Source: Eledone cirrhosa
Taxonomy: Eukaryota
Assembly (NCBI GenBank): GCA_964016885.1
Contig: OZ024751.1
Span: 18,042,001 to 18,106,000, forward strand
Reading direction: 5' to 3'
Length of the DNA: 64,000 nucleotides
Shown here: in pieces, positions 6,451 through 51,184 of the stretch
How the letters are laid out: every line of letters starts with the position of its first letter
Numbering within the stretch: position 1 is the first letter of the stretch
The notes under the pieces: model-generated
Seen by the model: the letters and a program-made list of their open reading frames with translations, nothing else
Told to the model about the DNA's origin: nothing
The model's database searches: none
Program-made: the position numbers and the translations under genes

Positions 6451-6455
<5 letters not shown>

Positions 6456-6643
6456 AACAAGTATGACCCCGACGGCAGAGCTCAAGCCATTTCGACGGCT
6501 ATTTCTGGCCTAGAAATAGCCGTCGAAACGGCTTGAGCTCTGTCGTCGGGGTCATACATGTTCCTATTACCCACTCTACTACCCAAAGTATTGAGTACTT
6601 AGTGCGTTATGGTCCATCTGGATCCTTACCACAATTCCTTCGT

Positions 6644-6645: not shown

Positions 6646-6676
<31 letters not shown>

Positions 6677-6749
6677 GTAGACATTACAATACAATAGAAG
6701 AGAACATAATAGTGTTGATGTTGCAGATGTGCAACGAAAGAACTTTGAT

Positions 6750-6802
<53 letters not shown>

Positions 6803-6803
6803 G

Positions 6804-6955
6804 TATTTTTAACTGCTGGTCAGTCAATGATAAACATTGATTGCCAAATAAATTAACTATGGAGATATAAAAGATACAGAAACGAAAACCAGCCAAACAG
6901 TGAGTGTGCTCTGTTATTATTTCTGGCAATATTACAACAATATAACCCTCCCCAA

Positions 6956-6960
<5 letters not shown>
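6804..6960 (+). mobile_element. Family C (TA)n-flanked short repeat
   Basis: Similar to 20446-20530 (-), 24731-24897 (-) and 25019-25180 (+); ends CCTCCCCAAGTATA. Confidence 0.7.
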
Positions 6961-7020
<60 letters not shown>

Positions 7021-7022
<2 letters not shown>

Positions 7023-7285
7023 ATTAGAAAGTGAACAACACGATATATAACTATCCCATTACCAAAGGTTTCAGGACCCTAGAAAATATTAACATATGTC
7101 TAGGTCTCTCATCCCTCTTTCTGATAAGCGGCCTAGACGTATGTTAATATTGTCTAGGGCCCTGAAACCTTTGGCAATGGAGTAAATGGTGTAATTATAT
7201 ATGTTGTTCACTTTCTAATTAAATAGCTCTCTTTTATACATAGAGCACTCTTTTTTCCTTTGCTTTTTCTTCGGAAATACTTAAA

Positions 7286-7286
<1 letters not shown>
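7021..7286 (+). mobile_element. Family B fold-back element with hammerhead-like core (CTGATAA..GAAACC)
   Basis: Inverted arms about 7021-7105 and 7131-7221, tail ending in (CA)n/(TA)n; relatives at 19704, 41510 and 50449. Confidence 0.75.
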
Positions 7287-7355
<69 letters not shown>

Positions 7356-7430
7356 TTATTAATATAACAGATTAAAGTTTAAGCAAAGAATCGCTGCTTT
7401 CAGCCCTAACGGGATCTTCTGAAACTCACA

Positions 7431-7792
7431 CTCACAGCCTTCTTTAAAGGCTTCAACCTCTCTATACAGGTTGAGGCCAACCTCTGGGTCGTTAATTACC
7501 TCGACGTTACCCTCAATTTATCGAATGGCTTGTATTACCCGTATAGAAGGCCGAATGATACGCTTAATTACATAAGTAAGCATTCCAACCATCCTGCCAG
7601 CATAAGCAAGAACCTGGTAAGAAACGTTTCGTTGAGGCTTTCCCGTCTATCTACTAACGAGCATATTTTCAACGACCATACCACTTATTACAATGAAGCT
7701 CTTGCTCGGAGTGGATTTGTCGATAAGGTAGCATATACAGAGTACGAGAATAGACCTAGAAGAAATAGATCCCGTCGCATTATATGTTATAA
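7431..7792 (+). pseudogene. Penelope-like RT C-terminal (motif 7/thumb/linker) fragment, probably Naiad-like
   Basis: Open frame FFKGFNLSIQVEANLWVVNYLDVTLNLSNGLYYPYRRPNDTLNYISKHSNHPASISKNL..RLSRLS..YYNEALARSGF..RRIICYN matches the PLE pattern FLDVT..Y.KP..Y..SNHP. The clade assignment is from memory and not searched. Confidence 0.85.
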
Positions 7793-7885
7793 CGTTTCCA
7801 CGAACCAAAGTATCGTCTTCCTGTCTTCCTCCGGTTGCAACGTTTTTAGAAATATCCACTTCTACGTTTACAGATTGACTTTGTT

Positions 7886-7936
7886 AGTTTCAGAAGATCC
7901 CGTTAAGGGTGAAAGCAGCGATTCTTTGCTTAAACT
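7886..7936 (+). ncRNA. Type I hammerhead-like motif with variant core CAGAAGA (family G)
   Basis: Stem I AGTTT/AAACT, stem II CCC-gttaa-GGG, GAAA, stem III AGCA/TGCT, CUU site. Also on the minus strand at 7376-7426 and 13820-13870. Confidence 0.7.
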
Positions 7937-8225
7937 TTAATCTGTTATTTGAATAAATATTTGCTCTATGGTTCTTATATATTTGATATATATTTATCCT
8001 TATCGAGCCCTCTTTGGATTTTAGTCTTCAAATTTATTATTATTACTATATATATATATATATATATATATAATACATTAACTGAGAAAGATTTAAGCAA
8101 TACTCCGACCGACATTCATCTCACTCAGCAAACATTAGGATAAACCTGAGTATAACCCTAATTATATTTTGGGGGTGCTAACTGTATTATATTTTGCAGA
8201 TAGCCGGCTGTATTATTTTATATGA

Positions 8226-13744: not shown

Positions 13745-13799
<55 letters not shown>
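12073..13799. repeat. (TA)n-based compound micro/minisatellite with recurring CATACAGACA motif
   Basis: Visible directly; source of the Y/I-rich ORFs. Confidence 0.95.
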
Positions 13800-13803
<4 letters not shown>

Positions 13804-13965
13804 CAAAATTTTAGATTAAAGTTTAAGCAAAGAATCGCTGCTTTCACCCTTAACGGGATCTTCTGAAACTAACAAAGTCAATCTGTAAACGCAGAAGTGG
13901 ATATTTCAAAAAACGTTGCAACCGGAGGAAGACAGGAAGACGATACTTTGGTTCGTGGAAACGTT
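13800..13965 (-). mobile_element. Family G PLE terminal-repeat fragment with CAGAAGA hammerhead
   Basis: Reverse complement of about 7790-7955. Confidence 0.85.
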
Positions 13966-14011
13966 ACCTATGCAAATATGTTTATACCATTACTTATTTG
14001 CATAGGTAACG

Positions 14012-20076: not shown

Positions 20077-20116
<40 letters not shown>

Positions 20117-20120
<4 letters not shown>

Positions 20121-20340
20121 ATAATAATACATTTGAAAACTAAAATCCAAAGAGGGCTCGATAAGGATAAATATATATCAGATATATAAGAACCGTAGAG
20201 CAAATATTTATTAAAATAACAAATTAAAGTTTAAGCAAAGAATCGGTGCTTTCACCCTTAACGGGATCTTCAGAAGATCCCGTTAAGTGTGAAAGCAACG
20301 ATTCTTTGCTTAAACTTTAATCTGTTATTTTAATAAATAT
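20117..20340 (-). mobile_element. Family G fold-back element centred on the hammerhead core
   Basis: Palindrome centre GGGATCTTC-A-GAAGATCCC at about 20272. Confidence 0.85.
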
Positions 20341-51099: not shown

Positions 51100-51184
51100 G
51101 GTCTGACGAGCCGTGGATTACAGAGTCGGGCGAAATCGATACAGATCGAACCTTAAGCTGATCAGTGGCGAAACGCGCGTCACC
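51100..51184 (+). ncRNA. Type I hammerhead with an approximately 60-nt stem II domain (family I)
   Basis: GGT-CTGACGA-GCC..GGC-GAAACGCGCGTC^ACC; palindromic stem III ACGCGCGT. Confidence 0.75.

Follow-up and report, generated by a model that had tools for sequence, protein, structure and literature searches.

A Broken, Internally Deleted Copy of a Hydra-Motif Penelope-Like Element in Eledone cirrhosa and the Hammerhead-Like 3' End of Its Family

We found that the repeat copy described here is very probably a 5'-truncated, internally deleted Penelope-like element (PLE) with Hydra-clade motifs, likely target-primed into a (TA)n tract and likely deprived of 1.5 kb by a microhomology jump, and that its junction has no further copies. 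It lies in a window of 64,000 nt of Eledone cirrhosa DNA, the whole stretch that was analysed. The copy is a single broken one, ordinary debris, and as one among many broken copies it is itself of little weight. The value of the locus is that it ties a hammerhead-like repeat, family G, to its own retroelement, and G should therefore be annotated as the 3' end of a PLE and not as a retrozyme family. Three points at the family level are worth a note: a fixed U4A core, spliced retrocopies, and a rule relating the two ends of an insertion.

Layout of the Copy

The features of the copy are listed in table 1. The initial annotation had described a stop-free reverse transcriptase (RT) fragment running directly into G, an inverted partial copy of G upstream, (TA)n on both sides, and the absence of the region where a GIY-YIG endonuclease would be expected. 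This description was accurate throughout. The RT-derived part reaches 7793 and lies in a frame that is stop-free from 7410 to 7940; 7353-7430 aligned with 7959-7882 at 93.6% identity (blastn), the exact end of the inverted arm being 7426, which faces 7886. In comparison with three natural copies that have both landmarks (of four compared), 1,472-1,518 nt are missing, namely the rest of the linker, the putative GIY-YIG endonuclease, and the 3'UTR with its intron. The catalytic YRDD (parent residues 346-349) lies upstream of the retained fragment and is also absent. Lacking this motif, the nuclease and an upstream pLTR, the copy was likely dead on arrival.

Table 1. Features of the element copy and its flanks, in window positions
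Feature	Position	Strand	Evidence
(TA)n target microsatellite, left side, after short (CA)n	7300..7350	.	sequence
Inverted 5'-truncated arm, copies G 7960 to 7886, starts at short (tail-less) end	7353..7426	-	blastn 93.6%
Arm-to-arm junction, 4-nt microhomology with parent RT sequence and 6-nt tandem duplication	7423..7435	+
ORF fragment: RT palm end, thumb, linker start; residues ~369-489 of the 709-aa ORF (RT fragment as first described, 7431-7792)	7431..7793	+
Deletion junction, 3-nt microhomology, ~1.5 kb gone	7791..7793	+
Family G, last pLTR exon up to the short 3' end	7791..7960	+
Predicted type I hammerhead fold	7870..7945	+	compared with File S2 of PMC8557442
87-nt tail separating the two family 3' ends (7960, 8047)	7961..8047	+
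(TA)n target microsatellite, right side	8048..8072	.	sequence

Repeat finding in the window was dominated by microsatellites. Two further short fold-back repeat insertions lie in TA tracts just upstream (7024-7222 and 6454-6567), the former with a CTGA motif inside.

The Parent Element Carries Hydra-Clade Motifs

The fragment is identical at 115 of 120 amino acids (96%) to a natural frame of 604 aa. The parent protein has 949 homologues among 7,994 scored, and the AlphaFold model of the parent ORF (pLDDT 90, from a 115-row alignment) had TERT as its four best Foldseek matches (E 3e-9 to 6e-8). Sequence profiles were blank or weak: Pfam gave no significant RT match for the fragment, the parent ORFs or 60 of the 120 homologues listed, and PDB sequence searches with the parent ORF gave no significant RT or GIY-YIG match. 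The Pfam GIY-YIG profile matched 2 of 55 homologues, both below the cut-off; the IVY..YIG motif and the following R/H/E/N-type residues are present in the natural ORFs. The proposal that the peptide is a piece of a PLE RT thus held, by its identity to an ORF that is modelled as TERT-like and has Hydra motifs.

These motifs are RWR at residue 37 and DKT at residue 115 in locus L107 (DKT instead of DKG), a CxCX5C linker, and CxxC and CxH flanking the nuclease E and N; CCHH is absent, and a single Cys lies between the two halves of the GIY-YIG motif. In the parts of PMC8557442 used here, the Hydra clade of C-terminal EN+ PLEs (e.g., Hydra-1_Obim and Hydra-1_Ajap) shares RW[KR], DKT, the CxCX5C linker, the CxxC and CxH around the nuclease E and N, and the lack of CCHH. 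The same source gives it a single ORF of similar length (~709 aa here), (TA)n targets, which were also met in the window copy and in the downstream flanks of other loci, and a sense type I hammerhead near the 3' end. The present unit is about 3.3 kb with its pLTR intron of about 0.75 kb, to which this length is due, and about 2.5 kb when spliced; elements of the Hydra clade are short, at less than 3 kb (PMC8557442). Hydra-1_Obim differs from it in the N-terminus and the hammerhead when compared by eye, and is a distinct family.

On these predicted features the parent is classed as a PLE with a TERT-like RT and a putative GIY-YIG endonuclease in its ORF, its Hydra-clade membership resting on motifs, and would be a new family carrying such motifs, that is, a new member of a known clade. 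A first assignment to the Neptune clade was dropped once the Hydra motifs had matched. A protein search of the same genome with the predicted protein P0001 gave matches of 53-57% identity only and no closer family (12 fetched, mainly ORFs compared). PF26215, which we take to be an animal HTH domain, and PF28514 are precomputed for many homologues and were absent from the Pfam scans run here. At L047, two other Penelope-type ORF pieces (66-1381 and 6653-8206) flank a Hydra-type copy, one a GIY-YIG with extra Cys/His and the other a YVDD RT.

Family G Is the Element's Own 3' End

The position of G relative to the RT was determined in 20 RT-anchored loci of 9.4 kb each. In 16 of them G lies directly downstream and points the same way, at 1.07-1.92 kb from the start of the fragment; in one it follows across a similar deletion, and in three there is no downstream G. 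In tandem copies it also stands directly before the ORF leader, and it occurs as an inverted copy upstream. Partial tandem and inverted 5'-truncated copies, as of a pseudo-LTR, were both found. This placement makes G the terminal ~257 nt, at once 3' end and pLTR end, of an element of about 3.3 kb. The initial annotation had taken the RT element for the autonomous partner of G. The association stood, and retrieval of genomic copies confirmed G as the terminus of those bearing the RT; what fell was the notion of G as a separate family with a partner, since it is the element's own terminus (17 of 20 loci).

Motif counts in the genome drop toward the 5' end, from 27,717 for the tail to 25,440 for the core and 11,989 for the start of G, with search patterns unlike in length and mismatches; such a fall is expected from 5' truncation. 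Apparent 3' ends at about 7997 were rejected as artefacts of TA repeats. In three loci (L076, L092, and L221), 5'-truncated copies begin behind the same short end of a foreign repeat, a sign that they may have a target or a junction in common.

A high-copy, hammerhead-bearing pLTR sequence is also what characterizes the animal non-LTR retrozymes, non-autonomous PLE derivatives, in the portion of Li et al. (bioRxiv 10.64898/2026.07.22.740005) used here. Unlike them, the window copy is single and non-tandem, keeps RT coding sequence, and has a junction without copies.

A pLTR Intron and Its Spliced Retrocopies

In the parent, G starts 2 nt behind a splice acceptor (pyrimidine tract and CAG), and in some copies 735-767 nt are missing, from GT donors immediately after the stop codon up to this acceptor. 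The apparent start of G at 7791 is explained by this acceptor 2 nt upstream and by the other long G copy of the window (13760-13966, minus strand), which is of the donor-1 spliced type with one mismatch. That copy sits in a short fold-back and directly adjoins another repeat family.

At no more than one mismatch, genome junction matches numbered 7,287 unspliced, 289 with donor 1, and 148 with donor 2, so that precisely spliced ones made up 437 of 7,724 (~6%). Thirty G copies taken in order of position gave 28 unspliced and one for each donor. The intron lies in the pLTR/5'UTR and is retained in most genomic copies. Contigs from runs X1 and X2, both of one other sample, contained these two GT..AG joints as well as a third. 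This third joint uses the same acceptor, spans 788 nt (L044:6056-6845), and was seen in one contig of run X2. In L049 and L050, the last ~130 nt of the intron are a diverged tandem duplicate (~80%), with a second acceptor-like site about 143 nt upstream.

A spliceosomal pLTR intron ending upstream of the hammerhead is shared with the Penelope of D. virilis, as given in the part of Cervera and de la Pena (2014, PMC4209133) used here. The acceptor lies about 80 nt before helix I in the present family but at helix I in D. virilis. The present family also differs in that about 6% of its genomic junctions are spliced, from at least two donors. A literature search for spliced PLE retrocopies, over a limited set of papers, returned nothing relevant. 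With such a low spliced share, the family offers a handle on why introns mostly stay.

The Deletion Junction Is Unique in the Assembly

The RT side and the G side of the junction have three letters in common, with a single substitution 4 nt upstream. The initial annotation had suggested that the junction may mark a deletion-derived non-autonomous lineage, and had named its recurrence in genomic copies as a check. It does not recur. The 26-nt junction gave one match at no more than two mismatches, the window copy itself, in the assembly (3.0 Gb, 1,796 contigs), which may have collapsed near-identical copies. With a 120-nt query, 40 of 1,398 candidates were scored and none of the 39 others joins RT to G; the one match reaching 10 nt further is G preceded by TA repeats. 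The RT fragment used as a query agreed with this. Among the best 40 of 4,635 candidates of the DNA search, 38 match the fragment alone (97-98%) and stop at the junction, and the other two are the window itself and L002/L031, where RT is joined to G at other breakpoints. In 28 other fetched loci the match likewise stops at the junction, and the flanks, examined in 25 of these, go on into the linker. Among the contigs listed from four runs, none crosses the junction at 7792, a result that carries no evidential weight.

Across 106 loci (88 with matches), 14 jumps of more than 100 nt were found: eight rows of splice joints, one of them listed twice, and six other deletions whose breakpoints are all different. 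Because the junction is unique and the other deletions each have their own breakpoints, it founds no non-autonomous lineage. Mobilisation in trans would be possible, considering that the parent family is large and that 27 of 71 scored protein matches are free of internal stops, and L031 does join RT to G at a nearby place. Its breakpoints differ on both sides, however, and the window copy has no upstream pLTR for transcription. A lineage mobilised by the full element is thus refuted for the present assembly, and we give it practically no chance.

The G-side breakpoint of the window copy lies only 2-5 nt behind the splice acceptor. Spliced retrocopies exist, and on the RT side a GT precedes the breakpoint by 5 nt. 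The gap could accordingly be a mis-splice, left when an RNA spliced from a cryptic donor in the linker to the pLTR acceptor was retrotransposed. The join is not the product of GT-AG splicing, however: four extra letters are kept on the RT side and the first two letters of the exon are absent. Mis-splicing would need about four changes, where microhomology needs one substitution, and we regard it as very improbable.

Another possibility is that a full-length or longer insertion lost the 1.5 kb later, by microhomology-mediated DNA repair. Such repair leads to the same end state as a jump of the RT and differs from it in timing, and the two are indistinguishable from one copy; the 3-nt microhomology fits both equally. 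The copy is young, being 97-98% identical to its relatives, and long jumps cluster near the exon start, which points, weakly and from few cases, to a property of the template rather than to random breaks. Later repair is therefore somewhat unlikely, and a microhomology jump during reverse transcription is preferred.

Together with the window copy, three of the six other long jumps (L031, L123, and L176) have breakpoints within about 30 nt of the acceptor; two of these four cases were picked by the query, so the clustering is a lead only. Something specific may act at the exon start near the acceptor, since a random deletion seldom lands 2-5 nt behind it and three other jumps are nearby. In L123 and L176, a position of about 115-119 in the ORF leader is joined to the start of G with a loss of about 2.9 kb, through unlike junctions; these loci are candidates for a mini-element or a jump hotspot.

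Two 3' Ends and the Formation of the Copy

The family has two 3' ends, a short one at 7960 and a tail end at 8047, and in tandem copies the ORF leader comes directly after the tail. In 86 tail-anchored loci, an inverted G arm was found in 48 and none within reach in 38. Of these 48 inverted partners of a tail-ended arm, 46 begin at the short end; an additional structure (L181/L182) carries a tail on each side. The inverted partial repeat had earlier been regarded as a typical trait of PLE insertions, and the family agrees with that. Among the tail-primed arms truncated inside G, 21 of 63 begin at 7946-7960 (p 1e-9 against a uniform distribution, with ends blurred by AT-rich microhomology and a range chosen post hoc), and among the inverted arms ending inside G, 12 of 25 end at 7880-7893 (p 9e-7, the range again post hoc). 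Both ends of the window's inverted arm, 7960 and 7886, are modal ends of the family.

The formation of the window copy by a microhomology jump could then have proceeded as follows. Nicking of the two strands of the TA tract by the element's putative GIY-YIG nuclease would have been followed by the priming of two cDNAs, at the tail end (8047) and at the inner end (7960). Synthesis from the inner end would have halted at helix I of the hammerhead (7886), a frequent stop in the family. The tail-primed cDNA would have run through G, switched at the very start of the exon to the matching 3-mer in the linker, continued for another 362 nt, and paired with the other arm over four shared bases. The modal arm from 7960 to 7886 fits two primers on two target strands with two start sites on the RNA. 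This two-primer, two-site scheme resembles LINE twin priming.

With Poseidon_Ac (PAc; Frangieh et al. 2024, PMC11167929), a PLE of a different clade, the family shares two 3' ends with an intervening tail and AT-rich targets. In vitro, PAc uses two primers on two target strands, starting at two RNA sites, and its hammerhead is dispensable for insertion (PMC11167929); the present family would share with it the extension of both strands and may share this dispensability. The tails differ: 87 nt upstream of the start codon here, and 30-40 bp inside the start of the ORF in PAc (PMC11167929). A tail frequently found at one end only is also reported in the part of Craig et al. (2021, PMC8557442) used here. 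As 46 of 48 inverted insertions carry the tail at a single end, the family offers a handle on the priming of the two ends.

The 87-nt tail contains a bulged stem (7963-7971/7998-8008). Twin bulged stems with identical 4-bp outer arms, each following one of the two 3' ends by a few nucleotides, occur at 7963-8008 of the window and just behind the tail in L140, L143, and L154.

A Conserved Predicted Hammerhead Fold with a U4A Core

The predicted fold in G has helix I at 7870-7878/7937-7945 and 7886-7890/7932-7936, helix II at 7899-7901/7907-7909, GAAA at 7911-7914, and helix III at 7914-7917/7927-7930, with a predicted cut after 7931. Three helices thus surround the core, with A15.1-U16.1, a NUH triplet, and U.U at 10.1-11.1. 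The core at 7891-7897 is CAGAAGA, whereas the canonical one is CUGANGA (C3 U4 G5 A6 N7 G8 A9), and position 4 is A in 93 of the 100 matches listed. A relaxed descriptor, drawn after the motif had been seen, gave one match in G and none in 5,000 shuffles of G or in 500 shuffles of the whole copy. The minimum-energy fold pairs the core otherwise and is not unusually stable (z -0.95), and Rfam gave no matches in the window. The label of hammerhead family given to G by the initial annotation needs one qualification: a type I fold is predicted, and the core is non-canonical.

Apparent canonical CTGA cores in G were rejected as fold-back artefacts at position 4. Of the seven T-bearing matches among the 100 listed, four overlap a match on the opposite strand, and the three that were fetched are fold-backs centred on position 4. 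Such insertions (window 20114-20340, L145, L146, and L148) are centred exactly on an interrupted palindrome at core position 4 and give one of the arms a spuriously canonical core. The idea of a hammerhead on the minus strand at the junction was also dropped, the descriptor finding none on that strand.

A sister subfamily gave 187 matches, of which 30 loci (L205-L234) were examined; position 4 is A in 14 of the 15 with an intact helix I arm and C in the other. Comparison of five of eight sister copies with 30 G copies found differences in 0 of 55 helix and core columns against 21 of 90 others (p 2e-5), and in 0 of 38 against 17 of 77 when the columns of the search pattern were left out (p 6e-4); this conservation comes without compensatory pairs. 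The subfamily is older, with helices and core unchanged and loops altered. One of its loci, L224, lies beside a different PLE RT (43% identical).

In File S2 of PMC8557442, all 26 Hydra-clade rows have U at position 4, against A here, and loop III is 1-3 nt, against 9 nt here; U.U at 10.1-11.1 occurs in 14 of the 26. U10.1-U11.1 is also known from natural ribozymes in Perreault et al. (PMC3088659), whose text, in the part used here, names no position-4 variant, although its Figure 5 may list some. A search for a U4A hammerhead in a limited set of papers found none, and bioRxiv supplements may list position-4 variants.

Judged from its predicted structure, the G motif looks like a hammerhead under constraint that fails the canonical core. 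Tentatively, selection may have preserved the whole hammerhead fold in a family of more than 25,000 core copies and a sister subfamily although U4A became fixed, the motif being either an active core variant or a silenced ribozyme that serves the retrotransposition complex as a structural signal. Of 63 truncated direct arms, only one starts within 5 nt of the predicted cut; copies end at the borders of helix I rather than at the cut, which favours the silenced ribozyme. If true, a conserved fold with fixed U4A would amount to a natural experiment on whether cleavage by PLE hammerheads is needed at all. Other hammerhead-like motifs in the window, at 51103 (+), 16650 (-), 50545 (-), 51659/51802, and 52596, have canonical CTGANGA cores and belong to unrelated families.
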